From an uncultured virus (IMG/VR IMGVR_UViG_3300038954_000199) (Duplodnaviria; Heunggongvirae; Uroviricota; Caudoviricetes): a DNA stretch of 64,000 nucleotides. Positions 27,754 to 55,800 of this stretch are shown one piece after another. The notes beneath the pieces were generated by a model, which did no database searches, was not told the DNA's origin, and saw only the letters and a program-made list of their open reading frames with translations. How positions within the stretch are numbered: position 1 is the stretch's first letter; every line of letters begins with the position of its first letter. Made by a program: the position numbers and the translations under genes. The stretch lies in the IMG/VR virus record IMGVR_UViG_3300038954_000199. One strand, written 5' to 3'.

Positions 27754-27804
27754 GGAACACTTTAAAATGTTATTAAAGAACTTAATCGGTTTAAGGAGTT
27801 TGCA

Positions 27805-30363: not shown

Positions 30364-30374
30364 ATGAGGATTTT

Positions 30375-30677: not shown

Positions 30678-30691
30678 ACTTGGAGGTTGTA

Positions 30692-31000
30692 ATGAAATAC
30701 AATTGTATTTCTAAAGAAGAAGAAAAAGTTTTAGCTATGATAGATGATAGATCAATAAAAAAACAATCTGAATACGATCAGGAATCAAAAGAGGTATTCG
30801 ATTCTAGGTACAAGTATGTGGAGGCCATAATTGAAGCTTTTGGGGGGGAAGACGTTTCGTATAAAGATCTTTTTGATGCGTTAGTAGCGCAAATGAGTGA
30901 CGATGAAGCCTTTGATGCGTTTGATTATATTTTACGGATGGAAGGGATGAAAGTAAAAAAAGACGGTACAATTGGTGATCTGTCCGAAGAAGATGAATAA
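30692..31000 (+). CDS. Small acidic protein
   Basis: GGAGG SD; EEEKVLAMID. Confidence 0.6.
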   Translation: MKYNCISKEEEKVLAMIDDRSIKKQSEYDQESKEVFDSRYKYVEAIIEAFGGEDVSYKDLFDALVAQMSDDEAFDAFDYILRMEGMKVKKDGTIGDLSEEDE

Positions 31001-31054
31001 TAAGACGACAGTAAATAGAGGATGATAACTGACAATGTTAATAAAGGAAACTAG

Positions 31055-32977: not shown

Positions 32978-33404
32978 GATTAATAGCAACAGTCATGACC
33001 CTACAGATAATAAGGTCTATGATTCTAGTGGGAAAGTTGTAAGAAACACAACGCAAATCCGTAAGGGATTGGTAGAAGATTTTTTGGAACTTTTACAGTC
33101 CTCTTTAAACGATAAACTTGGTATGTCTTATATAAATCAGATAGATATTTTTGAGAACTATCTTTTTGAAATGGAGACATATGTTAACTCTTTAAAAGAT
33201 GCTGCCCAAACAATTACTAGCAATTATCCGTCAAATGAGAATGACCAGCCGTTAAATGATCTATGTGATCTGTCGGACGTTCTTATTGAAGGGATTGGTA
33301 GAGTAAAAGATTATATAGAAGCTATAAAACTTTTTGATAATGATCTTAAAGTTATTAAGAGTGAAATGTATACGCATATTCAAACATTATTTCAGGAGAT
33401 TTAA
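32922..33404 (+). CDS. Hypothetical helical protein (start uncertain)
   Basis: ORF fills the gap after portal. Confidence 0.5.
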   Translation: MWGKSLKNDIRTKLEKLNKINSNSHDPTDNKVYDSSGKVVRNTTQIRKGLVEDFLELLQSSLNDKLGMSYINQIDIFENYLFEMETYVNSLKDAAQTITSNYPSNENDQPLNDLCDLSDVLIEGIGRVKDYIEAIKLFDNDLKVIKSEMYTHIQTLFQEI

Positions 33405-33405
33405 C

Positions 33406-34284
33406 ATGAACTATATAGGAGAACAAGTTTCGGTCGTAAACTCAGACGGTGCACATGTGTTTTCTGGAATAATTATGAAAACTGGTAGTTGTAATGCAAT
33501 GGTTAACGATGTAGAAACTGGCGATAATCATTATATTCCGTATGAGTTTTTGAAATCTGGAAGTGTGAAAAAGACCGCTCAGACAGAAGTTTTAAAAGAA
33601 CAAGAAAAAGATGGTAACGTATTTGTTCTTGAAAAAATAGATGATAATATTGATGGGGAACTTTCTACACAATATAAAATAACAGTTGATGATAATCTTA
33701 TTTGGGAATCTGAAAATATTACGACAAATGTTTATGATGTTGAACAAGGTTGGTCTGCACCAGATGACTTTGATGAAAATAAACTAGAATTAATTGAACA
33801 GTCCGCAGAAAGCGGTTTTGATTTAGTTGTAAACAGTTATACTAATATTGTTCAAAATATAACAGAAGAAGCAGAAGAAGCAGAAGAACCCACGTCGGAA
33901 GAGGGTGAAGATTCGGAGGACGATGTCCCAGAAGGGGAACCTGCATTTGCGCCTGGGGAAGGTCCCGATGAAGAAACAGGTGAAGTTGTTGTAGATGAAA
34001 GTGGAGAAGGGGTAGAAGAACCGGAAGGACCGGAAGAACTGGAAGAACCGGAAAGTGAGGAAGCTCCCTTTGCCGAAGAGGCCTCATTATCACGATCTAT
34101 ATTGAGTTCTAGACTTCATAGAAATCCGGAACACCGGTTAAATCCTGCATTGCGCGAAGAGATGGGTAGACGAGGATTAGATTCATCAGAAATGAATGAT
34201 TTGGAACTTGCTGAAAAACTAAAAGACTTTGATTATTCTAAAATATCTAAAAGAATACAAAATAAACTTAATAATTTGAGGTAA
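33406..34284 (+). CDS. Acidic protein with Glu/Pro-rich region
   Basis: AGGAG SD; VKKTA linker. Confidence 0.6.
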   Translation: MNYIGEQVSVVNSDGAHVFSGIIMKTGSCNAMVNDVETGDNHYIPYEFLKSGSVKKTAQTEVLKEQEKDGNVFVLEKIDDNIDGELSTQYKITVDDNLIWESENITTNVYDVEQGWSAPDDFDENKLELIEQSAESGFDLVVNSYTNIVQNITEEAEEAEEPTSEEGEDSEDDVPEGEPAFAPGEGPDEETGEVVVDESGEGVEEPEGPEELEEPESEEAPFAEEASLSRSILSSRLHRNPEHRLNPALREEMGRRGLDSSEMNDLELAEKLKDFDYSKISKRIQNKLNNLR

Positions 34285-34286
34285 TT

Positions 34287-37181
34287 ATGGAAATTAAAAA
34301 AGGTCAGTTAGTAGAATTATGGAATGGTAACCGTGGCTCTGTTCTTGATGTGTTAAATAAAAAAGCACACTTATTATTAGATAACGGTAAAAGAATATGG
34401 GAACCGGTTACTGCTATAACTTCAACTAAAAACGTGTATTCTGAGAAAGACGCCCGATTTTTACAGGCTAAAGACAAACTTGAGGAATATAAGAAATCAA
34501 CTAAAAAGTTAGCTCCCGGTAAAGTTGATGAAGATAAATGGGATGAAGCGAAACAAACAGTAAAAAAACAGAGAAATAAAAATATAGAAGAATTTAGCGA
34601 CCGTGATTGGGGACTGGTTAACCATATTTATCAAGAAATGGGAGGAGAGTTCGAGTCTGAAGCCTCCTGTGAAAAGGAAAACAAATTAAACCCGAACTAT
34701 AAAGTTAGATATAAAGACAGAGGAAATAAACAATATGTAACGTCCTCAAGCAAAAAAGTAGCTTTTAATAAAGAGCGTTATGAATACTTTGTGTCTGGTT
34801 ATGTAGATCCTGAAAGTCCAATATATGAAGGATCAAAATTTACTGTACGGCAGAATTTAGAAAGTATAATGAAAAACAATCCTTTTGAAGTTGTATTTCC
34901 GAGCGGAGAATTAACATATAAAAATTCTGGTGGTTATCCGCTAAAAACATGGGTAGAAGTATTAGAAGATATGGGATATAACACAGAAATTGGAGAATAT
35001 ACCATGAATGAACATAACGATGAAGGAGACGTAGTCGGAGAGGTTACTTGTAAAGAAGTAAAAGTTTCAAGTAAAAAAGTAGCTGCGCATCCAAATGATT
35101 TTAATACTAAATATCCTATCGGCACTATTTTAGTACCTTCAAATGGTGATAGAACAGAATTTGTTCATGTGTTGGATATTAATGAAGAAACCAAAACATA
35201 CGTTTTGGAAAAACGTCCGGTATCAGAATTTGTTGATAAGGATGATCAGATATATGGTGTTCGTTATGAAGTGCCTGTTTCTAAATTGGATGATGAGAAG
35301 GGATTAAAGGTATTTTCTAATAAGAAAGTATCCGATAATATTATTTCAATCTCCAAAAATGATTTCAAATCTATTAATATAAAAAGTTGCCCTGAAGTTG
35401 TGGACATTGATAAAACAGGATCTCTAATAAAACTTGTTTTTTCTAATGGTACTGCACAATTTAAAGAAGATGGAACATATGTTTGTTCATCCATAAATTT
35501 AAATGGATATGAAGGAGAATTAAGTCAAATGATAAAACATAATAAATATAATAAACTTTCTACCACTGTAGCTAAAAAAAAGATTTATAATAAATTAGCC
35601 AAACTTAAACAAAAATCATATAATAATCCGCGTAAACAGGCCGGTGATGATAGAACTCCTAATTATGTGGTAGACGTAACTCTTTCTGGAAACATTGTAT
35701 CAGATCCTATGGAGTGGAAATCGTCTTATGGTAAGCCGACGGAGGAAAATTTAAAAGAGTTTGTTCGACGAATAAATAAGTCTGTAATGCCTGGCGGAGT
35801 TAATGAACATTTAGGTGAAGATCATATTATTACGAAGGCTGTTATTAGAAAAAACCGTCCGGGAGCAAAACCGATTGTAGAATGGCAACAGGATGATATG
35901 TCTACTAGATCGGCCAAGAAGACTGCACTGACTATTCCAGAACAGCATCAGAAAAAAATTGCTTTGGACACATTAAAAATGTCTGATATGGGGGCATCTA
36001 TTATGGGAGGAATGACTAAAGAAGAAGCCCGTGAATTTTTAAGAACAATTGGTTATTCTGAAGAACGTATAAAGAGAATAGAGGCTACACTAAACAAGAA
36101 TGCAGCAAGAAGATACGCGGTTTATTATGATTTGGGTCCTGAAGAGGCTGAAAAAATCATTTCTGATTTAAAAGAATTAGGAAAAAAGATTGTTGGGGAT
36201 TACGCATACCTGGATTTTGGGTTTGACGATATGTCCGATGATGGATATAAAGGAATCATATTTAATATGATGTATGGAAACACACTTATACCAAATATTG
36301 AATATATACAAACTTTAAAAAATTTAAAAAGACACGATAATTTTAAAATTAACGATAAAAAAGATGAAGAGTACTTTTTAGATATTATTATTCAATGTGG
36401 TGAAGAGTTGCCGGAATCATACTGGGAGTCTAAAGAAACCGTAGATGGAGATATAAGTTCCATTGCTAAAAAGCGAATTTCTGAAAAACTGTCAAAGCTA
36501 AACACATTGTCAGAATACAAGAATATTGATATTGATGGTAAGGAACCGGATATAATACCTGTTTCCAAGTTTACTAAGTTTTATATTAGGCCGGATAAGA
36601 ATGGTTTTGTAGCTTGGGTTTCGGATGAAGTTGAAAACATAAGATCTGAAAAACTACTGTTTCCTACGAAAGAAGAAGCCGAGTCCTGGTATAAAGATAA
36701 ATATCCGAAAGTCATGACACGTCCTTATGGTAAACTTATGTCTTCTAAGTTAAATACTCATAGCTTAAACAAGAATGCTAATGAAGTTAAGCAATCAGAT
36801 GATTATTTGTATGATAGAATAGATAAAATGATGTCGGCTTTTAATGCTGGTAGACCCATTGATAATGAAACGTTTGCAAATGGTTCAGAAGCAATTAAAG
36901 AAATTTATAATGATGAAGTGTGGGAATATATTCGTCAAATGGCTACTAAATATCTTAGAGTGCCATCAAAGCGGTTAGGACAAGAGATAGATAGTGAATA
37001 TGAATTTGCTCTTAATAAGTATTTTGAGTCTACCGGATCTAAACAAGGTTCAAAAACTAAAATTGCAAGTCTTCTTAAGAAAGCAAAACGTTTAGGTAAC
37101 TATGACTTTGACATACATAATGGAAAAACATGGAAGTTAGAAGCTGGAGAGGATGGAAAACAAAAACTGGTTCGACTATGA
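34287..37181 (+). CDS. Large mosaic protein (putative head-packaged polyprotein)
   Basis: Linkers TKKLA, SSKKVA (twice), NKKVS, RKQA, AKKTA, LNKNA (twice), KTKIA between unrelated modules. Confidence 0.65.
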   Translation: MEIKKGQLVELWNGNRGSVLDVLNKKAHLLLDNGKRIWEPVTAITSTKNVYSEKDARFLQAKDKLEEYKKSTKKLAPGKVDEDKWDEAKQTVKKQRNKNIEEFSDRDWGLVNHIYQEMGGEFESEASCEKENKLNPNYKVRYKDRGNKQYVTSSSKKVAFNKERYEYFVSGYVDPESPIYEGSKFTVRQNLESIMKNNPFEVVFPSGELTYKNSGGYPLKTWVEVLEDMGYNTEIGEYTMNEHNDEGDVVGEVTCKEVKVSSKKVAAHPNDFNTKYPIGTILVPSNGDRTEFVHVLDINEETKTYVLEKRPVSEFVDKDDQIYGVRYEVPVSKLDDEKGLKVFSNKKVSDNIISISKNDFKSINIKSCPEVVDIDKTGSLIKLVFSNGTAQFKEDGTYVCSSINLNGYEGELSQMIKHNKYNKLSTTVAKKKIYNKLAKLKQKSYNNPRKQAGDDRTPNYVVDVTLSGNIVSDPMEWKSSYGKPTEENLKEFVRRINKSVMPGGVNEHLGEDHIITKAVIRKNRPGAKPIVEWQQDDMSTRSAKKTALTIPEQHQKKIALDTLKMSDMGASIMGGMTKEEAREFLRTIGYSEERIKRIEATLNKNAARRYAVYYDLGPEEAEKIISDLKELGKKIVGDYAYLDFGFDDMSDDGYKGIIFNMMYGNTLIPNIEYIQTLKNLKRHDNFKINDKKDEEYFLDIIIQCGEELPESYWESKETVDGDISSIAKKRISEKLSKLNTLSEYKNIDIDGKEPDIIPVSKFTKFYIRPDKNGFVAWVSDEVENIRSEKLLFPTKEEAESWYKDKYPKVMTRPYGKLMSSKLNTHSLNKNANEVKQSDDYLYDRIDKMMSAFNAGRPIDNETFANGSEAIKEIYNDEVWEYIRQMATKYLRVPSKRLGQEIDSEYEFALNKYFESTGSKQGSKTKIASLLKKAKRLGNYDFDIHNGKTWKLEAGEDGKQKLVRL

Positions 37182-37402
37182 GAATTTTTCAGGAGTTGTC
37201 TATAATTAAAAATGTTCTTGCTGGAGATTCTATTATAGATATTTCCTATGAACAAGGAGTTGGTAGACTTGACAGGGAACCGGTTTTAATACCAGATAGC
37301 CCGGATAAAAGTCAAGTACAACATCCTCAGTTTCTTATGGACGATGGGCTTCAGTGGAGACCTACAGATTCAGATAGACTGGAACAATTTACAAATTTAT
37401 AG
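37178..37402 (+). CDS. Hypothetical protein
   Basis: ATGA overlap with previous gene. Confidence 0.5.
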   Translation: MRIFQELSIIKNVLAGDSIIDISYEQGVGRLDREPVLIPDSPDKSQVQHPQFLMDDGLQWRPTDSDRLEQFTNL

Positions 37403-37413
37403 AGGAGTTTATT

Positions 37414-38496
37414 ATGAACGGTATGAGAACAAAAGGGATAGATTTTGACATTCCTAAAATTTCTAAGAAGGAAAGTAAGGAAGATTTACCCTTAGCTAGA
37501 CTTTATGAAGGGTTTTTTAGTACTTCTGCATTTGTACGTAAAAAATCTGATTCTAACAACGAACAGACTTCTAAAGACCAATCTGAAATAATTCAGGGAT
37601 ACCTACCAGTAATTTTTAAAGATGGTGAAATATATAAGTATGTTTCATTTTATGGTGGTTTAACAGATGACTATAATGATGCCTACATACAAGAAAGCGT
37701 GGAAGACGCACAGACTATTGCTGAAAAAAATGTGCCAGAAGGCCCATATACATATGAGACAATTCCTGTTAATGGTCTTAATGAGATGATTAAAGATCAA
37801 CTGACATATGCACCCCGCGCATCCAAAAAACACGCTTCTAATGTAGATAACATGGCAGAAGCTATTATGCAAGGGAAAGAGTTTGTGGATACAGGTTTTG
37901 GTAAAAAACGTAAGCAAGGTATTATAGAAATGCTTACAAATGAGAATTATCCTGCTTCTGAAATTACGGAAGCTTTATTGAATGGAAAGTCAAAACTTTC
38001 TACATCTTGGGGTGATAAAACTTCTACTGGTGTAGAAGATATGATTAACAGAGCCAGATCAGAAAAGAACTCTTCCAAAAAACAAGCCGTTATCTATGAC
38101 GGATATTCCTATAGGGTTACAATAGAATCCAAAGCGGGTAATAACAATCAGACCTATGCTATGGTCACCAACATGCTTTCTGCTGCGGATATTCGTTATC
38201 GAGAGGTTCGTAGGTACACAGTAGATCCTGATAGAGTAATGTTGGATATCCTTATTACAGAAGATGATGTAGAGATTATCAAGGAGTTGGATAAAGAAGG
38301 CAAACAATATGGAATTTCTTTTACCTTTAATGATAACATTTCAGAAGAGCTTAGACCTAGAGAAATTGTAACACCGGAAAAGGAAGTTTCTGAAAAGGTT
38401 GCGTCATCTCAGAAGACTGCTACAGTCAATGTAACAAAAGAAGACGTTTATACTGACTTCGAAACCTATCCGGCAGTTACGAGAAAAAATAAGTAA
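37414..38496 (+). CDS. Mosaic protein with ASKKHA, SSKKQA and SQKTA linkers
   Basis: GAGGAG SD; linker motifs. Confidence 0.6.
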   Translation: MNGMRTKGIDFDIPKISKKESKEDLPLARLYEGFFSTSAFVRKKSDSNNEQTSKDQSEIIQGYLPVIFKDGEIYKYVSFYGGLTDDYNDAYIQESVEDAQTIAEKNVPEGPYTYETIPVNGLNEMIKDQLTYAPRASKKHASNVDNMAEAIMQGKEFVDTGFGKKRKQGIIEMLTNENYPASEITEALLNGKSKLSTSWGDKTSTGVEDMINRARSEKNSSKKQAVIYDGYSYRVTIESKAGNNNQTYAMVTNMLSAADIRYREVRRYTVDPDRVMLDILITEDDVEIIKELDKEGKQYGISFTFNDNISEELRPREIVTPEKEVSEKVASSQKTATVNVTKEDVYTDFETYPAVTRKNK

Positions 38497-38533
38497 AGAG
38501 ACATACAATTAAACATTTAGAAAGGACTATAAA

Positions 38534-39337
38534 ATGAAAGATATTTTTACACTTAAAGCCGGTCTTGTTATTTCTCAAGATGAGACTCCTTTGGGTAATC
38601 CTAAAGATGTTATGAGAGAACGGGCACCTTCGAAATTCCCGTATGAAGAATATACCTTAACCGGACCAGAAGATGCTCGGACAATTGTTCCTACTTTAAA
38701 TGCTCTTAAAGAAGCACATGATAAAGTTAAAACTATAGAAACCGAGGCTAAAGAAATCCGTAAACAAGCGGAAGACAAAATAAGAGAATACCAAAAACAA
38801 GAAGGTCTAACGGAACTGCAACAAAAGATGACTGGGTTTTCTGAAAAATTAATAAATGAAGTAGAAGACGTATCGGAGACCATTGGAGATTCTATTTTAG
38901 AACACCATGGTGTTCTTATGGCGGTTCATGATGTGATAAAAAAGGGGACAGTTAAAAATGATGAGGCAGAACAAAAATTAATTGAAGTTATGTCTAAATA
39001 TGTTGAAGAAGATGTGGCAAACAAAATTCTTAAAGAAGCAAATCAAGCGGTAGATGATTTGAAGAAATCTAGGGAACAAGTTAAAAAACAACTTAGTGTT
39101 TGGCCCGCACCAAAAGACATTAGAAAAAAGGTTAAACAGGAAGTTCCTGCTTATAAAACGTCTGGAATATGGGATAAGGTAAAAGAGATCGCATCTAAAT
39201 TATGGGAATCCTTTAAGAATCTTATTAGTTCTGTATCTGATAATCTGTCATCTCTTGTATCTACTATTGATCAATCAGATCCTTTGGTAGCTGATATGAA
39301 GGGAGTTTTATCAGAAATAGGTCAACCAATTAAGTAA
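38534..39337 (+). CDS. Coiled-coil hypothetical protein
   Basis: GAAAGGA SD; heptad-rich sequence. Confidence 0.6.
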   Translation: MKDIFTLKAGLVISQDETPLGNPKDVMRERAPSKFPYEEYTLTGPEDARTIVPTLNALKEAHDKVKTIETEAKEIRKQAEDKIREYQKQEGLTELQQKMTGFSEKLINEVEDVSETIGDSILEHHGVLMAVHDVIKKGTVKNDEAEQKLIEVMSKYVEEDVANKILKEANQAVDDLKKSREQVKKQLSVWPAPKDIRKKVKQEVPAYKTSGIWDKVKEIASKLWESFKNLISSVSDNLSSLVSTIDQSDPLVADMKGVLSEIGQPIK

Positions 39338-40607: not shown

Positions 40608-41903
40608 ATGCTAGTTCGTTACGGGTCTTCAAAAATACTAAAAGTTTCTACCACTTTAAGTGGCTTAGACACGTTTTATAGGGCGGGTCTTGTTAAACGA
40701 TCCTCTAAGAATTTAGAGAGTCTTGATTTAGATCCGGAGAATAATGTTTACTTACGTAATCGAGCTGTTTCGGCATTGGAGATTCATGGGCCTAACCAGA
40801 ATTGGGATGCTTTTGAGTATGACGAGTTATCTAATACGTACACTACATTTATTGGTAATCCTATTTCTGTTGATCATGTCGGTGAAAATAGAATAGGTAT
40901 TGTTATTGATTCTGAATTTATTCCTTGTCATCCTCTTAACGAATCGTTAGGTATACCTGTAATGCCTTTTGAAGCAACACTTAAATCTTTAAATAGTTTA
41001 TGTAGGACTAAAGATACGTTTAGCAGAGTATATGAGTTTGCCAGCAAGGCAAACCTTGTTCGTGGTAGTGACGAAAAGCGTATTATTGAGTCGGTTGCAA
41101 AGGCTATGACTAATACAGGTTGGGTAGAAAATATTTGGGCGGTAGATAAAGATTTGGCGGAATCACACAGAACAGGCTTAGTTGACGCTATACTTAGAAA
41201 TGAAATTACAGATACGTCAATGGGGGCTGCTGTTGAAGCATCAATATGTTCTGCTTGTGGACACATAGCTACCGGTGAATTACCCGAACATGAAGATTTC
41301 TGTGATTGTATACGGCTACACAAAGGTTCTCCTATATCTATCGAGGGGGCTGTTGTGATACCTTTTGAGATAAACAGGGACTTTGAATTTTTTGAAGATT
41401 CTCTTATACTTCCCTTCAAGTTTGGTGGCCAAGCTGGAGGTGAGGGTGCTGATAAGGACGCAAAATTATTAGAATCTTTTGGGTCTAAAAAAGCGTACAT
41501 TGAAACGAGTCCTCAAAACCATCTTACTCAGGATCAACCAGATCGGTATGCTTTGGTTGGTGACATGCCTGAAAATGTGAGAGAACATAAAGATGAATTT
41601 CTTTCTGAAAAACGGGAAGAAATGAAGGAATTTGTTGAAGAGCAATCAGCACCAGGAAATTTTCCTGAAGGAACTATTATATCTATAATGTATGAAGATG
41701 ACGAAGTGAGTGCTGTGGTAGTAGATGAATATGAAGATGGGACTTTAAACATTGCTATTGATGATCTTGATGAGCCTTTAGAAATATCGACAGAAGAGGT
41801 ATTAGAAGTTATTACTTATCCGGAAGAGATGTCTTATAAAGACCGTCTTAGTGTGACGGATATCAATACATATGAGATGACTCCGGAATCCAGAGGTGCG
41901 TAA
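40608..41903 (+). CDS. Prohead maturation protease with zinc ribbon and acidic C-terminal extension
   Basis: PNQNWDAF, TFIGNPISVDH, TSMG..V...ICSACG...C, FEIN...FFEDS; upstream of scaffold and capsid. Confidence 0.7.
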   Translation: MLVRYGSSKILKVSTTLSGLDTFYRAGLVKRSSKNLESLDLDPENNVYLRNRAVSALEIHGPNQNWDAFEYDELSNTYTTFIGNPISVDHVGENRIGIVIDSEFIPCHPLNESLGIPVMPFEATLKSLNSLCRTKDTFSRVYEFASKANLVRGSDEKRIIESVAKAMTNTGWVENIWAVDKDLAESHRTGLVDAILRNEITDTSMGAAVEASICSACGHIATGELPEHEDFCDCIRLHKGSPISIEGAVVIPFEINRDFEFFEDSLILPFKFGGQAGGEGADKDAKLLESFGSKKAYIETSPQNHLTQDQPDRYALVGDMPENVREHKDEFLSEKREEMKEFVEEQSAPGNFPEGTIISIMYEDDEVSAVVVDEYEDGTLNIAIDDLDEPLEISTEEVLEVITYPEEMSYKDRLSVTDINTYEMTPESRGA

Positions 41904-44360: not shown

Positions 44361-45254
44361 ATGATCACTAAACAAGCATCTATGAAAAGAGAAGCTGCCA
44401 AGGCTTCTATGATGCGAAAAGAAGCCGATTTGCAAGCGGCTATGAAGTCTCCTACAGGTCTTCATAAAATCGCTGCGAATTTAGCTTCTCCTGTTCGCAA
44501 GTATCTCGATTACATTGGCATTTTCCGTAAGTTTGCGGTTTCCGAAGGCTGGCCGGATGGAATGCCTATGATCTATGACAACGATATCGATGAGTTTACC
44601 GCCGTCAAAATAGGCGCGAATGGTACAACTCGTATCGTTGAAGTTGAAGTTGAAAGAACCGAACTAACAGAGTTCGAAATTCTGGTACGTCCTAAAGTTC
44701 CATATGCCGAACTTTACAAAAGATTGTATCAGGTGATGAAGCGTGTTAAAGAACGTCTTGAGCAGGGTATGGCTCTTCGCGAAGACCTGTACGGCTTTTC
44801 TCTTCTTGAAACTGCTTCTCAGCAAGTTAATACAACGATTGCCATTTCTACTTATTTAACTAAAGACGCTCTTGCCAGAGCATTTACTCAGGTAGAACAG
44901 CATCGTCTGCGTGTTAAATCTATTCTTATGAGTCCTTATGGTATCCAGGGTATTCGCCGTTGGCAGTACGAAGATATTGATAATACGGCTCGTGAAGAAA
45001 TTCGTAAATCCGGTTATCTTGGAAGCATCTGGGATGCTGATATTTACATTAACGACCAGGTTACAAGTGGTACGTTCTACATTATTGCAGAACCTGAATT
45101 TACTGCTTGGATGCCTATTCGTCGTGATGTCGATGTTATTCCTGCTGATGATCCTGATAACGTCCTGCTTGGTTTTGTTGGGTACGAGCTTCTTGGAATG
45201 ACCGTACACAATGGCAAAGCAGTTGCGAAGGGTACATTTAACACTTCCGGTTAA
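44361..45254 (+). CDS. Major capsid protein (HK97-type fold inferred)
   Basis: PVRKYLDYIGIFRK...IYD; GYLGSIWDADI; LGFVGYELLGM; strong SD; terminator follows. Confidence 0.8.
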   Translation: MITKQASMKREAAKASMMRKEADLQAAMKSPTGLHKIAANLASPVRKYLDYIGIFRKFAVSEGWPDGMPMIYDNDIDEFTAVKIGANGTTRIVEVEVERTELTEFEILVRPKVPYAELYKRLYQVMKRVKERLEQGMALREDLYGFSLLETASQQVNTTIAISTYLTKDALARAFTQVEQHRLRVKSILMSPYGIQGIRRWQYEDIDNTAREEIRKSGYLGSIWDADIYINDQVTSGTFYIIAEPEFTAWMPIRRDVDVIPADDPDNVLLGFVGYELLGMTVHNGKAVAKGTFNTSG

Positions 45255-48074: not shown

Positions 48075-48256
48075 TGTTGTATGATGATTTAGATATTAAT
48101 TTAGATGAATTACAAGATTATTCTCTTGAACAGAGAAGAGAAAAACCAGGATTAACAACAGAAGAGGAAGAAAATATAGACTACCATAAAAGCTTAGTTG
48201 ATTTCAATCGGGCGAGCATTAATAAATTGGTAGAACTTGTAAAAAACTGTTTATAA
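48074..48256 (+). CDS. Hypothetical protein
   Basis: TAATG coupling. Confidence 0.5.
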   Translation: MLYDDLDINLDELQDYSLEQRREKPGLTTEEEENIDYHKSLVDFNRASINKLVELVKNCL

Positions 48257-48268
48257 AAAAGGGGGACT

Positions 48269-49120
48269 ATGTCTTCTGATAATTCTCTCTCGACTAACCC
48301 TGGTAATCAACTACAGGGAATAAATACACAAGGAATATCGGTCAATAAAGACCATATTGAGGTTAATATTGATTGGGTAGATCCAACTACTAACCAATAC
48401 TTTGATCCAACTACTTATTCTGTTTCAGTAACAAAAGATGGTTCACCCTATACAGTAGAAAAAGTATTAGTTCCGTTATCAAGAGTAGACGATTCTGTAG
48501 GTGTTTGGCACTATTCGTTTCTTACTTCTGGAATGACTTCTGGAACATATGAGTTTACCTTTTCAGGTTCTACTAGTACTATATCAACTGTAACCCATAC
48601 ACTATCCTTTACTTCTGCCGAAATACCGGTAGAACAATATTTTATTGGTGCCTTGCGTGCAAAGTTATGGGATAAACGTGCAAGCAGATATCTTATTGAT
48701 GATAATCAACGAACTCGATGGACGGATGGTGAATTGTATAGTTTTGTTGATGATTCTCGATTAAGAATTGGTCAGGAACCTCCTAGTCCTGAAAATTTAT
48801 CCTGGCCGGTAGCGTTTTCGGAAGCCCATGACTTAGTTTTGACTGGTGGTTTTATTGGTGCCTTGGAAGCTGCGGGTATATTTTCGCAATGGAACAAGTT
48901 TAATTATTCCGATGAATTAAGTCTTAATGTAGACAGAACACCTTTTTTCCAAAATGCTCAAAGTCTAAAACAACAATGGATGCTATCTATAATGCGTTGG
49001 AAGAGAGACAAACAGTTCCATGCTGTTCGTGGAATAGGTATGCGTTCTGGAAGATTCCCGATGTACTATACGAGAGTTATGAGTCTTTTACCTCACATGT
49101 CCAGAGTCTTTTACGGTTAA
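48269..49120 (+). CDS. Putative head-tail adaptor/neck protein with N-terminal Ig-like domain
   Basis: LRAKLWD...RWTDGELYSFV...N.PP-like segment, FNYSD; position. Confidence 0.5.
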   Translation: MSSDNSLSTNPGNQLQGINTQGISVNKDHIEVNIDWVDPTTNQYFDPTTYSVSVTKDGSPYTVEKVLVPLSRVDDSVGVWHYSFLTSGMTSGTYEFTFSGSTSTISTVTHTLSFTSAEIPVEQYFIGALRAKLWDKRASRYLIDDNQRTRWTDGELYSFVDDSRLRIGQEPPSPENLSWPVAFSEAHDLVLTGGFIGALEAAGIFSQWNKFNYSDELSLNVDRTPFFQNAQSLKQQWMLSIMRWKRDKQFHAVRGIGMRSGRFPMYYTRVMSLLPHMSRVFYG

Positions 49121-49132
49121 CTTGGAGACTTT

Positions 49133-52100
49133 ATGTCGTTAATAGATATTATAACGTCAACCCTTAAAAAACAAGGTGACACGACTACCAAAAAAGTAAC
49201 CTATAAAATAAAATCAAAAGGTAGAAAATATTTTAAAGGTGAAAATGACAAGGGGTATACAAATAATATTGTTATCAACGATGTTAGTAAAGATTTTGAG
49301 GTAGGAGAAACATATACTTTCTCTGCCAATGTTGATTTTGATTATAGTAAATATGGTGTTAAAGTAACGGTAACTCCTATATCTGAAGAAGACGCCCAAG
49401 AAAAAGAGCGCTCCAAAGATATTGAAACTGCTAAAAAATGGTTGGGTTGGGTAGAAGAAAAAGCAGAAGAGGGTTACTTATATGAAAAGGGATTGAATAA
49501 AATAAAGCAGTTAGATGTTTTAGATGTTGAAGAAATAAAAGATAGAGTAGATAAAGCCAAAGAAACAGTAGAGAAAGTAAAAAATGACCGTATAAAAAAG
49601 CTTAAAGAGATACAATCCAAGTCTATTTATTTAAATGTCCCCTATGAAGAAAAGGACTATGCAAGACAATATGGTGCTCGGTGGGATTCCATTAGAAAAA
49701 AATGGTATTACCCCGGTCAAGATTTACCACAAGAACTAGAAAAATATGTTCCTGTATCTCAGGTTCCTCTTAAAGACGGAGAATACCGAATAGGAGGAGG
49801 TTCCGGATATGGATATGAGTATTATTCCCCAGGAACAGTTATCTATAATAAAGGCTTTTTTGAAAATGGTCCTGAATATCTTTATGTAATTAGATCAAGT
49901 AAAACGTACTATAGTGATGATGGTATGTCTTTCGGAGTAGGTGAGGATTCTGGATATTATTACACTTATATTGTTAGAGAAGCCACTCCTGAAGAAGCAA
50001 AAGAAGTAAAGGAAGTAATTGAAAAAGACGTATCTTACAAAGAGTCTAAAAAATCTTTGGATGAGATTAAAGACCGTATTATTTCTCAAGGAGACCGACC
50101 TGAAAAGGCAGATGCTCAGGGGGATATTGTATACGACACATTCAATATTTATGGTGGTGGCGAAAGATTTGTAATTGACAATACTTATATATGGTATATA
50201 CAAAATAATGGTGCTGATGGTGATAATTGGGAACTGAATAATGTGAGTACCGGCGGTGCAGGTGCTATCGGGTGGAGAGTTCCATACGATGAAGAGTTGG
50301 CCGAAAATATACGAGAAAAGTCTAAAAATATAAAAACCGGATCTTATGGAAAACCAATTGTATTCTTAGGTGGAGAAACAAAAACAGATTGGCGCAAAGA
50401 TGTAGTAAAGGAATTTGAAAATACCTTAACACTAATTGACCCGGTAGATCCTGATTGGGATCCAGAAGAAAACATATATGATGAATTAAAAAACATGCTA
50501 CTTTCTAATGATGTTGTATTTTATAATGGTGGTAAAGGTACTGAACATGAGAAAGAGTTTTTAGATTCTTTAGATCTTCCATATGTAAAATTTGACAATG
50601 TTGAAAAATTAAAGGAATATCTTAATAATAAATATGTAACTTCGAGCTATATAAAAGGTTCCTTGGAAGACAACAAGTTTTGGATATCTCCAGAGGGGTA
50701 CATTTTATATTTTGATGAAAATATTGAGCATGTCTATTATACTATTGATAACGATTTATATTATTCCGATGATATAGATGCTATAGAAGACTTTGGTGTT
50801 GTATTTTATAAAACAAAAGAGGGAATGAATAGTACAGGATGGGTACACGGAGGTTTTTCTCCTAAGTATTCTTATTTTTCTTTTGATCCTAATGCTCCAG
50901 TAGCAAAAAACCTGTTAAAAGATTTAGTTTTTGATGCTATATCGGATGGGAAAAAGGTTTTTATAGATGCTGCAAATATAAATGTAGGATTTACTACTGT
51001 TAAAGAAGCAGAAAAAATATTTAGTAATATCTTTGATAATGAACAAACTACAATAGCATCCAAGAACTATAAATTTTGGCTGGATCCTTCTGGTAATATT
51101 TACCAATTTTCTTCTTCAACAGATCATGGAAAATACGCGCACGAACATAATTTATACGATGATTATGCATTAGAAGACTCACCCGAATTAAAATACTATT
51201 CTATAATAACGGACATGCAAGAAAATGGTTGGGTACGGGGGGGATTTACCGGGAATTACCTGTCTTTAGAATATAAGCATAATACCAATTTACCAACACA
51301 ATCTATAAAAGAATTGATCCAGCGGGGGGTAGATGAAGATTTAACAATAATAATTGATACCGATAAGGGTTCGAATAAAATTGAGACCTCTTCACAAGCT
51401 AATGAGGTATTACGTTCTCTTGGATCTCTTGTTACTGCTGATCATAAATATGGCTGTTTATATTGTCCAGTTCCTGAGAATTTGCGAAGAACTATCCTTA
51501 AAGATGTAGTTCCGAATATTCCTCATGACATGCTTTCAGAAGAAAAAGACTTATTTGGAATAGAAGCAGACACACACATAACGACTTTATACGGTATTGA
51601 TAACAATCCGGAAACTGTTGAAGTCATTAAAGAATTTTTTACCGAACCTATTAAATTAAAGACTGGTCATATTGACTATTTTGATAATGAACACACTGTT
51701 GCTTATGTTTCGGTAGAATCAAAACAATTAACAGATCTACATAATAAATTAAAAGATAATCTGTTTAATAAAGATAATTATGATGATTACAAACCTCATA
51801 TAACAATAGCCTATCTAAAACCAGGAAGTAGACTTAATAGTAAAATAAAAACATTTGAATGGGAAACATCAAGATTAATATTAATTAATGAAGGAGATAC
51901 AAAAATCATTGATTTAAATAATGTTGTAGATCCTATAAATGTAATAAAGGGAACATTGAAATTAAGTTTTGATGCTGGTAGCTATGCATATGAAACCCCT
52001 TCTAAAATATTTGATGATGTAAGAGAAAAATTTCCTGGTAATTTAGGTGATAATCTTGATTATTATGACGTTAATTACTTTGACAACGAACAAAATAAAG

Positions 52101-52300
52101 CATTAGTTAAGAAACGTATAGACGATATGTGGAATTTAGATCCAACCGCAGTAGAGGAAGCGGATGTTGGAGATACTATTGAAGAAAAAGGAGAAGATGC
52201 AGATGATTATGGACTGGTCTCCGAGTCTGATGAATTACCCGGTAAGGACTATGAAGATTTTATAACAAAAACTATTGGATCAATAAGGTGTGTTTTGTGA
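49133..52300 (+). CDS. Polyvalent protein: DUF5710-like, deoxyribosyltransferase-like, duplicated FW.xPxG domain, Acb1-like 2H phosphoesterase
   Basis: YLNVPYEEKD.A...GARWD...KKWY; VFLGG...DWR...DP...W; HITTLYG and YKPHITIAY. Confidence 0.7.
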   Translation: MSLIDIITSTLKKQGDTTTKKVTYKIKSKGRKYFKGENDKGYTNNIVINDVSKDFEVGETYTFSANVDFDYSKYGVKVTVTPISEEDAQEKERSKDIETAKKWLGWVEEKAEEGYLYEKGLNKIKQLDVLDVEEIKDRVDKAKETVEKVKNDRIKKLKEIQSKSIYLNVPYEEKDYARQYGARWDSIRKKWYYPGQDLPQELEKYVPVSQVPLKDGEYRIGGGSGYGYEYYSPGTVIYNKGFFENGPEYLYVIRSSKTYYSDDGMSFGVGEDSGYYYTYIVREATPEEAKEVKEVIEKDVSYKESKKSLDEIKDRIISQGDRPEKADAQGDIVYDTFNIYGGGERFVIDNTYIWYIQNNGADGDNWELNNVSTGGAGAIGWRVPYDEELAENIREKSKNIKTGSYGKPIVFLGGETKTDWRKDVVKEFENTLTLIDPVDPDWDPEENIYDELKNMLLSNDVVFYNGGKGTEHEKEFLDSLDLPYVKFDNVEKLKEYLNNKYVTSSYIKGSLEDNKFWISPEGYILYFDENIEHVYYTIDNDLYYSDDIDAIEDFGVVFYKTKEGMNSTGWVHGGFSPKYSYFSFDPNAPVAKNLLKDLVFDAISDGKKVFIDAANINVGFTTVKEAEKIFSNIFDNEQTTIASKNYKFWLDPSGNIYQFSSSTDHGKYAHEHNLYDDYALEDSPELKYYSIITDMQENGWVRGGFTGNYLSLEYKHNTNLPTQSIKELIQRGVDEDLTIIIDTDKGSNKIETSSQANEVLRSLGSLVTADHKYGCLYCPVPENLRRTILKDVVPNIPHDMLSEEKDLFGIEADTHITTLYGIDNNPETVEVIKEFFTEPIKLKTGHIDYFDNEHTVAYVSVESKQLTDLHNKLKDNLFNKDNYDDYKPHITIAYLKPGSRLNSKIKTFEWETSRLILINEGDTKIIDLNNVVDPINVIKGTLKLSFDAGSYAYETPSKIFDDVREKFPGNLGDNLDYYDVNYFDNEQNKALVKKRIDDMWNLDPTAVEEADVGDTIEEKGEDADDYGLVSESDELPGKDYEDFITKTIGSIRCVL

Positions 52301-52977
52301 CTATAAAAGAATATTTTGTTCCAACTTATAATAGAAGCCGAGGACGTATTAAATACGGTGTGATTCATCATATATCGGTAAAGAATATTCCTGGATATAA
52401 ATCAGATCCTTATAACATTGATAGAATACTTAAGTTTTTTGAGGATGAAGGAAGTCAATATAAATTTTCATGCCATTATATAATAGATAGAACCGGGAAT
52501 ATTTATCAATTAGTACGGTTAAAAAATACAGCTTGGCATGCAGGAAAGTCGGTATTAGCTATACCCAATTATGAAGAAAATATAAATGATATTTCTGTAG
52601 GTGTTGAGATGGTTGGTATGACTGGTGATACGTTTACAGATGAACAATATAACTCTTTAGCAGAACTATCTACTCATATTGAAGACCAAGTTAGAGATTT
52701 AAATCTAGGTAATATTGAACATTGGGTTGGTCATGATTGGATAAGTGGGGTGATAGCCCACAAATTAGATATAAGAGACGATATTAAAGTAGACCCAGGT
52801 AATTTTGATTGGTCTAGGTTTAATTATCTACGAATAAAAAATAGAGTCTATAATGAGGTGTGGTCAAAATGTAAAGTTAGGCTTAGACAAGATATAGAAT
52901 CTGATATACGTAGAATATTTAAAAACAAATTAACCATTAAAGAGTTATTATCTCTATTAATTAAAAAAGTAATATAA
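52297..52977 (+). CDS. N-acetylmuramoyl-L-alanine amidase (AmpD/Amidase_2)
   Basis: VIHH, CHYIIDRTG.IYQLV...AWHAG, SVGVE, GHD, KVDPG.FDW. Confidence 0.88.
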   Translation: MTIKEYFVPTYNRSRGRIKYGVIHHISVKNIPGYKSDPYNIDRILKFFEDEGSQYKFSCHYIIDRTGNIYQLVRLKNTAWHAGKSVLAIPNYEENINDISVGVEMVGMTGDTFTDEQYNSLAELSTHIEDQVRDLNLGNIEHWVGHDWISGVIAHKLDIRDDIKVDPGNFDWSRFNYLRIKNRVYNEVWSKCKVRLRQDIESDIRRIFKNKLTIKELLSLLIKKVI

Positions 52978-52978
52978 C

Positions 52979-53821
52979 ATGGATTTTGGATTAGTTGTAA
53001 ATCGTATTTTAACTGGTGCTGGTAATTACGTAGTAGATTTATCCTGGACACATGTACGAAGTGTTAGAGGATACAACGTTTATCGCTCAGAATCACGATC
53101 CGACGATCCTAATGACTGGGCTAAAATAAATACAAAAGAGATCCATGTTAATTATTACCAGGATAAAGGGTTTACTGGGGATCCTGTTGATAATGGTAAA
53201 GTTCAATGGTTTTACAAGGTTATACCAGTTACCCTTGCAGGTGATGAATACCCTTTATCTAAATCTGAATCGGAAACCTTTGCTACCCGCTTAAATGGTA
53301 TTCAACAGTTTGTTGCGCCTACAATAAGAATGCGTACTCATATGATGTTGGATCCTACTCGGTTTTCAGCATCGGAACCGGTTCATTTTTTAGTTCGCAA
53401 ATGGGCCGGAGAATATTGTGATTGTATTGATGTAAGGACAAGGAAAGTAGATGCAAATTGCCCAAATTGTTTTGGTCATGGTTATAAAGGCGGTTTTGAA
53501 CTTATTGAAAGTGTTTATTGTAGAATGAAATCTAACCCAAAAAGGTTAATGGGTAATTCTGGTGGTGTTACTATTGAAGAACGAACAACTGGAACTATTG
53601 AAGCGTACCCAAGATTAACAGAGGGGGATATATTAATACGGTTACATAATGAACGCTTTAGAATACGTAATGTTAAACAAAGAAAGATTCAGGGTTATAT
53701 AACTGCACAAGCATTTGAGCTGGAAAAAATGCAATTGTATGATATGGCTTATAGAGTACCGGCTCCTCCTATTGTGTTACCAACCAGAAGACTTGGGCAA
53801 GAAAACCCTAATACCGTGTAA
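52979..53821 (+). CDS. Putative neck/head-closure protein (FN3-like N-terminus, Cys4 motif)
   Basis: LSW...GYNVYRS; CDC...CPNCFGHGYKGGF; PRLTEGDILI. Confidence 0.5.
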   Translation: MDFGLVVNRILTGAGNYVVDLSWTHVRSVRGYNVYRSESRSDDPNDWAKINTKEIHVNYYQDKGFTGDPVDNGKVQWFYKVIPVTLAGDEYPLSKSESETFATRLNGIQQFVAPTIRMRTHMMLDPTRFSASEPVHFLVRKWAGEYCDCIDVRTRKVDANCPNCFGHGYKGGFELIESVYCRMKSNPKRLMGNSGGVTIEERTTGTIEAYPRLTEGDILIRLHNERFRIRNVKQRKIQGYITAQAFELEKMQLYDMAYRVPAPPIVLPTRRLGQENPNTV

Positions 53822-55800
53822 TGTCTAGTTCATCAAGTTCATACTCTTCAAGTTCATGTTCATCTAGGTCTTGTTCATCATCTAGTCATTCAACATCATT
53901 GTTAAGTCAAAGATCGTTATGGACAAACATAATGCATCGGGAAGAATATAATTCTATTAATCATGGTAGGGGTGGTAGTTGGCCAAGGAACAATATTAAC
54001 GTTTTAGGATATGATCGAAATACACAAACACTTTTTAGAACAGGGGTAGGAACTGGAACAGATTTTACCGGATATCATAATCAATATTCAAGTAGTTCGC
54101 ATAGTTCTAGTTTAAGTTCGTCAAGTTCAAGTTTTAGCAGTTCATCTTCATGCTCACACAGTTTGTCAAGTAGTTCATGTTCCAGTTTTAATTCAGGAGG
54201 AGATGTGGATACAAATGGTGCTGTCTTTGTGACAGATGTGGATGCTACGGGAGCAGGAAACGTTGGCGATAAAGTATTTGATGCTGATGGATTTACACTT
54301 CAAAGTTTCTCTACCGATACGGATTTGTTGACAGTAAGTTTTCTTGCTTTTACGGGTTATACGCACTATAAACCGAGACTTACTATCAATGGTGATAGTA
54401 TACCTCTTGAAAATTACTCGTTATCAGGTGCTGGTCAATGGACAGGAACAGTAGAAATAGATCTAAATGGTTCATCCGAAATTTCGGTTGAACATGAAGA
54501 TAATCCCGAAGCGTATACAGTAGACGTATCGGTTGCTTCTGGAGCAGAAGTTACAGATCTTACCTTTACAGGTGATTATCCAGGATCACAAACTGAACTT
54601 AAATCTGGAGATACATTTGACATTTCATTTACTACTGACGTGGCTTGTGATAGAGTAGAAGTATATGATCATGAGGCTTGTGTATCTGATACAGAAGTAT
54701 TGGTAGCCGGAACGTCTCACACGATATCCGTAACAATCGCTGACCGGGGTTCCGGCACAGTATCTGAACAGACGGTTCGTATTAGGTGTAGAAATGCGTC
54801 AAATTCTTTTTGGGGGGATCCTGCTGTAGCAACTGATTTTCATACCGGTGATGGTACAGGAACAGTTGAACTTAATAATGATTACCCTGTCATATCTTCA
54901 ATTGGGCAAAGTGATATTGACTATCCGGCGTCTCAGGAAGCGCTTAAAGATGCTGAGTCGGCAACGGTTAACCATACAGTCTCATTTCCAACAGGTACTG
55001 GAACAGTTGCTTACGATTCACCAAACAGTCAATTGTCTATTACTAATTCATCTACTTACGAAGCAGCAAAATCCGTTTCAAGAATAGATGGGTCCTATAA
55101 TGTATCAACAAATAACTTTAGAGTGGTAGCAACTAAAACAACTAATGCAGCAGAAACAACTAGACAAGGGGTAGTGTATATTTCCAATGTTGCTCCGACG
55201 ATTAATATTAGTTCGCCAACTAGATTGAGATCAGGTGGTAATCAGGGAACTTCGGCTCAAAACCATACGATAACAATTGTATCTTCTCAAGACTTAATAG
55301 AATCTCCGACATTATCTGCCGATATCGGAACATTTCAGGGTGGTGGATTTACTGGTGGACCAACGAGTTGGACACGATCTTTACAGATTCATGATGATGA
55401 TTCTAAAGGAACTGGAACTTTTTCAAGTCTTGTTGCTACCAGTCTTTCTGGGATTGAACAGAACACAATTAATTCTGGTGATAAATATACTGTAGGGGGA
55501 TTTGTTGAAAGGACACTTACTATTGATTCTTGGCCTAATAGGGAAACCAACATTGGAACTCAAGTATCTGATACAGCAAAACTGGAATGTGAAAACCTAT
55601 CTAAGGGTGGTGATGGTCCTAATGGTGGAACTGTCTTTACTTATGATGCCGACACAGACAACGAAGTAGATAAATTTACTATTACTGAACCGACAGGTGT
55701 TGCTAATCCTACTGGGAATTTATGGTATAATAAAGATGAAGCAAATGCGGTATCAAATACAGGTGGATCTGCTCAAGTAATATTAGAAGAGGTGGTCTAA
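53821..55800 (+). CDS. Virion structural protein with poly-Ser N-terminus and Ig-like beta repeats
   Basis: Two Ser tracts; Thr/Gly/Ser-rich beta sequence. Confidence 0.6.
   Translation: MSSSSSSYSSSSCSSRSCSSSSHSTSLLSQRSLWTNIMHREEYNSINHGRGGSWPRNNINVLGYDRNTQTLFRTGVGTGTDFTGYHNQYSSSSHSSSLSSSSSSFSSSSSCSHSLSSSSCSSFNSGGDVDTNGAVFVTDVDATGAGNVGDKVFDADGFTLQSFSTDTDLLTVSFLAFTGYTHYKPRLTINGDSIPLENYSLSGAGQWTGTVEIDLNGSSEISVEHEDNPEAYTVDVSVASGAEVTDLTFTGDYPGSQTELKSGDTFDISFTTDVACDRVEVYDHEACVSDTEVLVAGTSHTISVTIADRGSGTVSEQTVRIRCRNASNSFWGDPAVATDFHTGDGTGTVELNNDYPVISSIGQSDIDYPASQEALKDAESATVNHTVSFPTGTGTVAYDSPNSQLSITNSSTYEAAKSVSRIDGSYNVSTNNFRVVATKTTNAAETTRQGVVYISNVAPTINISSPTRLRSGGNQGTSAQNHTITIVSSQDLIESPTLSADIGTFQGGGFTGGPTSWTRSLQIHDDDSKGTGTFSSLVATSLSGIEQNTINSGDKYTVGGFVERTLTIDSWPNRETNIGTQVSDTAKLECENLSKGGDGPNGGTVFTYDADTDNEVDKFTITEPTGVANPTGNLWYNKDEANAVSNTGGSAQVILEEVV

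Follow-up and report, generated by a model that had tools for sequence, protein, structure and literature searches.

The injection of phage polyvalent proteins and the degradation of immune nucleotides by a packaged 2H phosphoesterase have already been proposed by Iyer, Burroughs, Anand, de Souza and Aravind (2017, PMC5512222). Described 2H enzymes include the anti-CBASS enzyme Acb1 (T4 gp57B, FBB1; PF23474; Hobbs 2022, PMC9117128) and PDE-9 (Doherty 2025, bioRxiv 2025.08.21.671373); in the latter study, two structural groups of phage 2H enzymes cut 0 of 18 messengers. The Acb1 homolog of phage G is a stand-alone gene and was not detected in particle proteomics. Orf10 of the Gordonia phage GMA2 was detected in purified virions, including a peptide that spans its second HxT motif. 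For viral DrHyd domains only the ADP-ribosyl-cyclase type is reported in the accessible part of Iyer 2022 (PMC9503650), and that part does not deal with a version such as the present one in head polyproteins.

Here, 64,000 nucleotides of an uncultured Caudoviricetes virus (IMG/VR IMGVR_UViG_3300038954_000199) were analyzed; this whole stretch is called the window. The window represents the virion module of a myovirus of the phage G/Bxz1/Tunturi_5 type, and the 1055-aa ORF located among its neck genes encodes a phage polyvalent protein: several disparate domains are joined in one chain, the gene lies in a late/virion context, and orthologs with known polyvalent domains show a shuffled architecture. 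The original prediction of a polyvalent protein within the head/neck module is supported, and all of its motifs were found at the expected places (Table 1).

Table 1. Coordinates of the polyprotein ORF, its modules and relevant neighbouring genes in the window.
Feature	Coordinates	Strand	Remarks
Polyvalent polyprotein, whole ORF	49133..52300	+	1055 aa
N-terminal module, no assigned function	49175..49612	+	residues about 15-160, behind a short leader ending KKQG
DUF5710 domain	49625..49753	+	residues 165-207; PF18974, E 7.6e-13
Module without assigned function	49769..50326	+	residues about 213-398
Nucleoside 2-deoxyribosyltransferase-like (DrHyd-type) domain	50351..50626	+	residues 407-498; PF15891 28.4 bits; alignment; VFLGG at 50360
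WxxPxG/H/GWxR domain, copy 1	50675..51040	+	KFW at 50675, GWVxGGF at 50837
WxxPxG/H/GWxR domain, copy 2	51071..51430	+	KFW at 51071, GWVxGGF at 51227
VTA-D linker directly before 2H domain	51431..51442	+	
2H phosphoesterase	51440..51922	+	H815/T817 and H889/T891; HIT at 51575 and 51797
C-terminal acidic module, GNLGDN motif	51968..52285	+	found at the C-terminus of P0004 and P0005 as well
Upstream conserved gene, probable head-tail connector	48269..49120	+	name inferred from position; no family match
Downstream conserved neck gene, homolog of Tunturi_5 gp322	52979..53821	+	E 2.4e-18; weak PHROG virion match
Head maturation protease, candidate processing enzyme	40608..41903	+	phrog_18299, E 3.1e-08
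Major capsid protein, short leader ending KQA	44361..45254	+	36.7% identity to phage G gp27

The modules named beforehand, including the DUF5710 domain now recognized by Pfam, all stand; two further ones at residues about 213-398 and 946-1051 had been overlooked, and the 2H domain ends at about 51922 instead of 51900. Over its last 56 residues, the first overlooked module shares 64% identity with the C-terminus of a free-standing protein of Caudoviricetes sp. vir521 (300 aa), and the stop of that protein coincides with the place where the module meets the KTG junction. The C-terminal acidic module is a candidate anchoring or packaging element. The N-terminal module had no Pfam match above cut-off, no PHROG match and no relative among the other proteins gathered; a weak Pfam match to CBM_4_9 was not accepted. 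Comparison of the whole protein with solved structures gave chance matches only, and the ESM Atlas yielded no usable match for residues 505-640 and 210-400. Positions 48200-53000 are spanned in one piece and with zero differences by one contig of run X1, which is possibly the source of the record and hence not independent. GC content varies little along the ORF. A second contig gave two matches of 18 bases, one of them at the KTG junction; both were treated as chance.

Judged from its sequence, the 2H active site is intact. Both HIT motifs of the predicted module were found and the 2H fold was modelled; all of the 35 2H domains that were aligned (35 of 35) keep the two HxT motifs of the superfamily, the second being fixed by the search pattern. 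In isolation, the domain scores above the Pfam cut-offs for both 2_5_RNA_ligase2 (PF13563, 42.9 bits) and Acb1 (PF23474, 31 bits versus a cut-off of 27), yet PF13563 scores higher and the Acb1 score is only 25.7 in the whole protein. The model is confident (pLDDT 92.7) and matches 2H structures with Z up to 16.0 (rmsd 3.0, 152 aligned). The structures that superpose best on it are those of drCPDase, E. coli LigT and TT0787 (Z 15.5-16.0, rmsd 2.4-3.0, 151-152 residues), and Z is 11.5-11.8 for Acb1 versus 15-16 for LigT-type enzymes. Structural closeness to LigT-type enzymes is one half of the outcome that the original prediction had itself set against its assignment. The C-terminus is modelled as two strands forming a beta hairpin and not as an Acb1-type lid, lids being sometimes N-terminal and poorly predicted. 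In a sequence alignment the base-stacking residues Y12 and W147 of Acb1 and its adenine contact E141 are absent; the positions of the other two stacking residues, W74 and F107, are aromatic here (F850, Y883). In a tree of 66 rows this 2H domain falls outside the Acb1 clade (11 rows, support 100/98), LigT/ThpR being represented by a single ThpR row on a long branch.

A family profile ranked Acb1-group structures first, with a slight lean only. The first profile (A3) had included one Acb1-clade row (L038); when it was rebuilt without L038 the Acb1 lead shrank, the Acb1 group (32.5 and 31.8 bits), LigT-like PH0099 (29.2) and YjcG (28.7) being nearly tied. A locus search from the single 2H sequence confirmed 0 of 4 stretches. 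In the proposed comparison with Acb1 and LigT-type proteins, structure favours LigT by Z and the sequence profile leans slightly to Acb1. We place the 2H domain in a phage-polyprotein clade that is neither Acb1 proper nor, by its TIGR02258 score, ThpR and that appears to lie between Acb1 and LigT. The designation "Acb1-like" holds only at the level of fold and superfamily, the domain being outside the T4 Acb1 clade, lacking three Acb1 residues and being nearer in structure to LigT-type enzymes.

The order of the structural matches and the near tie of the rebuilt profile would also suit a packaged cargo whose 2H domain is of LigT/CPDase type and is directed at defences based on ribotoxins or NAD and not at CBASS, either by healing 2',3'-cyclic phosphate ends of RNA or by removing ADP-ribose-1'',2''-cyclic phosphate; a relative (P0006) in which weak KptA/PARP-like domains are joined to the NDT-like and 2H domains points the same way. 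We regard this as possible but rather unlikely, since the ThpR equivalog TIGR02258 scores 27.1 bits versus a cut-off of 65.7, the profile-profile comparison gives 98% for the Acb1 clade (84 columns) versus 85% for E. coli ThpR (a single sequence and hence not a fair pair), and polyvalent-type 2H domains were, according to Iyer 2017 (PMC5512222), never seen beside RNA ligases. A Pfam scan of 56 ORFs of the window, which is about half of a 118-kb contig, detected no RNA ligase.

The motifs of the predicted nucleoside deoxyribosyltransferase-like (NDT-like) module are in place, FLGG, DWR and T470-x-x-E473 being invariant, although its score for Nuc_deoxyri_tr2 (PF15891), 28.4 bits, lies just below the cut-off of 30 (relatives 23.6-27.6). 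The T-x-x-E motif is kept in 7 of 7 aligned domains, and E473 is the putative counterpart of the catalytic glutamate after strand 3 of nucleoside 2-deoxyribosyltransferase-like/DrHyd enzymes. B. subtilis YtoQ is a weak match (E 0.015), and GenBank phages gave no credible one. The domain is a probable base-removing enzyme. At the six loci found with an NDT-like domain, three of which were in the query, a capsid-protein homolog lies within about 8 kb upstream in all six, and the domain shares one ORF with a 2H domain in four. This recurring NDT-like and 2H pair is new.

The predicted tandem copies of the KFW...GWVxGGF domain, here termed WxxPxG/H/GWxR, are borne out by an alignment over 120 columns with a score of 136, far above that of shuffled sequences (mean 30, maximum 55; 500 shuffles). 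Copy 2 keeps every conserved residue, and in copy 1 a His replaces the conserved Arg. Copy 2 is modelled as a confident alpha/beta domain (pLDDT 91.2); its best PDB match (Z 5.0, gelsolin-like domains) is within background, which does not show a new fold. The domain's His is kept in 63 of 63 domains. Sequence searches found no PDB match, scattered and weak PHROG matches, unnamed or uncharacterised viral models, no credible match in GenBank phages and one match among 720 candidates of 58-237 aa. This domain, for which these searches gave no family or fold match and of which related polyproteins carry up to eight copies, is likewise new.

Its copy number of 0 to 8 among related polyproteins, and the nearby head ORFs, many of which are long, acidic, rich in linkers and without known domains, might indicate that the polyprotein is mainly a head filler or scaffold with enzyme domains as passengers of metabolic (nucleotide salvage) or no role. 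The conservation of the HxT motifs (the second fixed by the search pattern), of T-x-x-E and of the WxxPxG His makes this quite improbable.

The ORF occupies a variable slot between two conserved neck genes. In L003, L051 and L052 the gene immediately before the slot encodes a product 58-78% identical to that of the upstream gene; in Tunturi_5, gp322 comes after the 2H polyprotein gp321 (SprT-like, 2H, ART-PolyVal and GNAT domains), which thus lies directly before the homolog of the downstream gene. A polyprotein of different order is found between the same two genes in three of four relatives with full context (L003, L051, L052; not L099): the same modules are reordered and ART or peptidase domains are swapped in, with ART-PolyVal in L003 and L051. 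Unrelated inserts comprise endonuclease-like ORFs (L052, L092, L095) and an amidase (window, L003). A capsid alignment against GTDB genomes gave no host hint because 0 of 71 stretches were confirmed.

For this phage lineage, the sequences bear out the K-x-A linker. [KVIL][TKQ]A precedes 39 of 76 domain starts in relatives but is present in 9 of 239 windows inside domains (mean after shuffling 12.4; 39 reached in 0 of 1000), the 76 windows being from related proteins and not independent. An unguided motif search recovers K-x-A, and the four boundary sites of two held-out loci rank 1 and 9 of 483 and 1 and 2 of 408. KK.[AS] occurs 35 times in head ORFs of the window versus 10.0 in shuffled ones, and 3 times in non-virion ORFs, where shuffling gives 3.5. 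The leader of the capsid protein has KQA/KTA/KNS as its end, at the place that corresponds to the start of the capsid proteins of phage G and Tunturi_5. In the polyprotein ORF, the boundary tripeptides previously read as looser linkers (KTG 50333, VTS 50636, TIA 51050, VTA 51431) are barely above chance (summed score, P=0.085), KTG, VTS and TIA also occur or are matched off boundaries (KTG 843, TIA 891), the top-scoring site (residue 621) lies within a domain, and KK.[AS] is found 0 times versus 1.0 expected. The only canonical linker is VTA-D before the 2H domain, where P0004 and P0014 have VTA-N and VTA-S. The predicted cutting of this particular ORF is weakly supported.

Such degenerate linkers, an insertion site that accepts unrelated genes and the lack of a fused capsid, portal or MuF domain are also compatible with a late virion-operon product that acts in the infected cell without being cut; in that case the slot would be no more than a tolerated insertion site driven by a strong late promoter, and the linkers would have decayed since processing was lost. 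We consider this unlikely: in L003, L051, L103 and L105 the same slot has well-preserved linkers, VTA before the 2H domain is retained in three phages, and a third-position serine is also seen in the window's own head proteins (KKTS).

We favour, with a probability of about one half, a head-associated late cargo polyprotein that is partly cut, delivered and acts on immune nucleotides. The sequences show its domain content, intact catalytic motifs, slot variability and the lineage's linker enrichment, whereas its packaging, cutting, ejection and substrates are inferred. The polyprotein would be made late and loaded into the prohead of a phage G/Bxz1-type myovirus, where the head maturation protease would cut it, at least partly, at sites of the K/V-x-A type, the one preceding the 2H domain being the most credible. 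In the next host, the 2H domain may hydrolyse a cyclic or 2'-5' nucleotide phosphodiester of host immunity, the NDT-like domain may attack the N-glycosidic bond of a nucleotide, probably within the same nucleotide conflict, and the WxxPxG/H/GWxR domains might act through binding, in many copies. Counted against this reading are the weak boundaries, the LigT-nearer 2H model, the apparent lack of the Acb1 lid and of three contact residues, the two phage 2H groups that cut 0 of 18 messengers, the failure to detect phage G's Acb1 homolog in particles, and the fact that GMA2 is a siphovirus of different architecture. Its gene position and, by analogy, the 2H-bearing protein in GMA2 virions (Orf10; related 2H domain, E 5.3e-08) make it probable that the product travels inside the virus particle and serves to blunt host defences. 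It is doubtful that the protein is a protease-released anti-signalling kit with the 2H and NDT-like domains as a two-step pair and the WxxPxG/H/GWxR domains, up to eight per chain, as a nucleotide-binding sponge. In such a pair, a ring might be opened and the base then removed, or an ADP-ribose-derived TIR signal be hydrolysed.

If packaged, signal-degrading enzymes would arrive with the phage DNA, ahead of any gene expression. The slot provides a natural list of swappable counter-defence candidates, the K-x-A rule marks where to cut modules for expression, and the WxxPxG/H/GWxR domain is abundant, predicted to fold with confidence and without known counterpart. The cultured Tunturi_5 makes the strategy, which itself is already in print, testable. 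In the literature covered, which largely excluded subscription journals, no paper was found that deals with K-x-A as a cleavage motif in heads of the phage G type, names PF15891 or describes an activity-tested virion-packaged 2H enzyme.

The polyvalent proteins described in PMC5512222 share with this one the disparate domains in one chain, the late/virion context, a 2H domain without RNA ligase, relatives with ART-PolyVal, GNAT and zincin-like peptidase domains, and a shuffled order among orthologs; unlike them, it has no self-processing metallopeptidase or MuF domain, and its processing would rely on K-x-A linkers of the head-protease type. Neither the NDT-like nor the WxxPxG/H/GWxR domain came up in the accessible text, the paper's set also holding 40 unnamed domains. 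With Acb1 the protein shares the 2H fold, the HxT/HxT tetrad (both also found in PDE-9) and the aromatics, but it is embedded in a polyprotein, is 20% identical to T4 Acb1, lacks Y12/E141/W147 and has a C-terminus modelled as a hairpin and not as a lid. LigT/ThpR and drCPDase RNA 2',3'-cyclic phosphodiesterases superpose best over the whole 2H domain, but identity is 13-18%, the score is far under the TIGR02258 cut-off and the context is that of a phage virion. The NDT-like domain resembles PF15891 and YtoQ of the DrHyd superfamily in its FLGG..DWR start and conserved T-x-x-E, with a score under the Pfam cut-off. Tunturi_5 gp321 and GMA2 Orf10, the latter in virions, carry a related 2H domain in a virion-module polyprotein of a cultured phage, but their other cargo domains differ. 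Overall, the strategy is known already, the combination of domains is new, and the protein is not the anti-CBASS enzyme Acb1 itself.

The polyprotein ORF encodes 1055 amino acids, and all motifs described in the original prediction were found at their places. One contig of run X1, possibly the source, spans the region without a difference. When analyzed as isolated pieces, the 2H phosphoesterase domain matched 2_5_RNA_ligase2 with 42.9 bits and Acb1 with 31 bits (Pfam cut-offs 27), and the nucleoside 2-deoxyribosyltransferase-like (NDT-like) domain matched Nuc_deoxyri_tr2 with 28.4 bits (Pfam cut-off 30). The two KFW-starting repeats are homologous, with an alignment score of 136 versus a maximum of 55 in 500 shuffles. 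Residues 1-400 have no counterpart in the other sequences compared. Their last module ends at the KTG junction where a stand-alone vir521 homolog stops, so that the ORF seems to have taken up an entire gene by fusion.

Features of the polyprotein, the window and related loci (L numbers)
Feature	Position	Observation
Polyprotein ORF	49133-52300 (+)	
DUF5710	residues 165-207	Pfam, E 7.6e-13
Nuc_deoxyri_tr2, weak match	residues 408-447	Pfam, whole protein
2H domain	residues 813-908	Pfam, whole protein
HD-domain protein	3128-4087	possibly another nucleotide phosphohydrolase
Glycosyltransferases, asparagine synthase-like amidotransferase, NAD-dependent epimerase, methyltransferases, D12-class adenine methylase	4319-16284	directly upstream of packaging genes; possibly virion or DNA glycosylation
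DUF932 gene	19891-20904 (-)	after terminase-like gene; sole long minus-strand ORF
Long acidic ORFs (1307, 852, 964, 360 aa)	22391-39337	around portal; many K-K-x-A/S sites, no family match; likely further head cargo polyproteins
Amidase_2 gene	52288-52977	13-base overlap with polyprotein ORF end; found in L003, absent from L051 slot
Downstream neck gene	52979-53821 (+)	
Ser/Cys-rich low-complexity N-terminus of 659-aa ORF	53821-54200	resembled by separate 134-aa ORF in L051
ORFs inserted in same slot	L052 10875-12014 and 14400-15836; L092 2072-2896; L095 1248-2474	presumably homing-endonuclease-like (motifs)
L003 slot polyprotein		2H - NDT - unknown - ART-PolyVal - C-terminal module
L051 slot polyprotein		two ART-PolyVal - WxxPxG - further ART-PolyVal - NDT - 2H
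L052 slot polyprotein		NDT - WxxPxG - HELIH-motif peptidase-like domain; no 2H
Tunturi_5 (cultured) gp321		SprT-like, 2H, three ART-PolyVal stretches, GNAT
GMA2 Orf10 (siphovirus virion protein)	L107 7981-10632	ITA and VTA-A precede domains, one just before 2H

A confident model of the 2H domain (pLDDT 92.7) gave Z scores of 16.0 with drCPDase, 15.5 with E. coli LigT, 14.3 with Usb1 and 14.0 with YjcG, as compared to 11.8 with FBB1 Acb1 (rmsd 3.5, 132 aligned) and 11.7 with PDE-9; in a Foldseek search with this model Acb1 ranked tenth. A 35-row 2H profile, one row of which is an Acb1-clade member, placed Acb1 on top (E 4.9e-08), and a 23-row profile without the Acb1-clade row gave 32.5 bits for PDE-9, 31.8 for Acb1, 29.2 for PH0099 and 28.7 for YjcG. 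The 2H loci were gathered by a pattern containing the second HxT motif, and that alignment column is therefore biased. A tree of 66 rows groups T4 Acb1 with ten relatives in a clade (100/98), and the polyprotein 2H is placed outside it among 53 phage-protein rows (97/92); the deep order is not settled by this tree because ThpR forms one long branch. Among the Acb1 contacts named in sections of Hobbs et al. (PMC9117128), W74 and F107 align with F850 and Y883, and no counterparts of Y12, E141 and W147 were found in the alignment. Thus, the polyprotein carries an intact 2H domain of a separate phage clade, which is Acb1-like in its fold but does not belong to the Acb1 clade. It may work like Acb1; as described in part of Doherty et al. 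(bioRxiv 2025.08.21.671373), substrates differ between phage 2H groups, lids vary, and two groups cut 0 of 18 messengers.

Scanning with the NDT-like alignment gave 81 stretches, of which 6 were confirmed. A capsid homolog lies upstream in all six and a 2H domain in the same ORF in four; three of the six were already in the query alignment, and the other three show a capsid homolog in 3/3 (29-35% identity) and 2H in 2/3. FLGG, DWR and T470-x-x-E473 are invariant in 7/7, and E473 would be the catalytic Glu of NDT/DNPH1-type N-glycosidases. The best solved relative is YtoQ (E 0.015). Sections of Iyer 2022 (PMC9503650) group NDT-type domains with TIR and SLOG and mention, for viruses, cyclase-type domains of this kind only.

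Among 1.84 billion representatives searched, 13 other proteins matched the WxxPxG/H/GWxR domain; 11 of them exceed 700 aa or are multi-copy, seven also contain 2H and one has eight copies. Across 63 aligned copies, duplicates included, His is kept in 63, Pro in 62, Trp in 61 and Arg in 57. The model is confident (pLDDT 91.2), and no fold match above Z 5.0 was found among 48,161 chains. Because the copy number is high and variable, action by binding would fit better than catalysis. Six related polyproteins of 1500-2650 aa (P0015, P0018, P0019, P0022, P0024, P0025) have five to eight copies, most together with 2H; judging from motifs, several presumably start with a nucleotidyltransferase-like domain, and P0018 also carries a low-molecular-weight phosphatase.

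The window, part of a 118-kb contig, contains terminase-like, portal, head protease, capsid, neck and sheath genes. Its capsid protein shares 36.7% identity with phage G gp27, 30.6% with that of Tunturi_5 and about 24% with those of cluster C mycobacteriophages; a capsid alignment search of GTDB genomes gave no host hint. Four relatives have full context (capsid identity 93, 86, 85 and 60%). In three of them the slot between the two neck genes holds a polyprotein with shared modules in a different order; in L099 it is empty, and the ORF after the neck gene is linker-rich and 1651 aa long. The L092 and L095 sequences stop before the slot becomes readable. Tunturi_5 gp321 directly precedes a homolog of the downstream neck gene (E 2.4e-18), and the gene upstream of gp321, annotated as head-tail connector, did not match the connector profile.

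The polyprotein had also been proposed to be processed at linkers between its domains. In 22 other, mutually related polyproteins, [KVIL][TKQ]A, a motif picked after the sequences had been seen, precedes 39 of 76 domain starts versus 9 of 239 in-domain windows (shuffled mean 12.4; 39 reached in 0 of 1000 shuffles). An unguided motif sampler returned K-x-A-[AS], and four boundary sites in the held-out loci L103 and L105 ranked 1, 9, 1 and 2. KK.[AS] is enriched in the head ORFs of the window (35 versus 10.0 shuffled) and not elsewhere in it (non-virion ORFs 3 versus 3.5, neck/tail ORFs 0 versus 0.9). At the position where the phage G and Tunturi_5 capsid proteins begin, the leader of the window's capsid protein ends in KQA, KTA or KNS, which makes the head protease a candidate cutter. 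Head-protease cutting has precedent in T4 and reportedly in SPN3US. In the polyprotein itself, however, VTA before 2H is the only canonical linker, the five boundaries jointly reach P=0.085 and the top-scoring site falls inside a domain; thus, its full processing is uncertain.

Packaging of the 1055-aa polyprotein is putative. GMA2 Orf10 (883 aa), met as a structural neighbour, contains a 2H related to that of the polyprotein (E 5.3e-08); as reported in part of PMC4524720, purified virions yielded this protein, including one peptide that spans the second HxT motif. Two points argue against packaging: the stand-alone Acb1 homolog of phage G is absent from the particle proteomics in the portion of PMC12484599 concerned, and the main text of the Tunturi paper (PMC11924767) contains no mass spectrometry. 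Overall, the observation behind the original prediction was confirmed, and its interpretation is supported in part.

Sections of Iyer et al. 2017 (PMC5512222) already describe 2H-bearing polyvalent proteins of phages, encoded close to virion genes, and propose that they are injected and degrade immune nucleotides; the proposal is repeated in part of Iyer 2021. New is the combination of an NDT-like and 2H pair that recurs within a swappable neck-side slot in G/Bxz1-type phages and the undescribed, amplified WxxPxG/H/GWxR domain.
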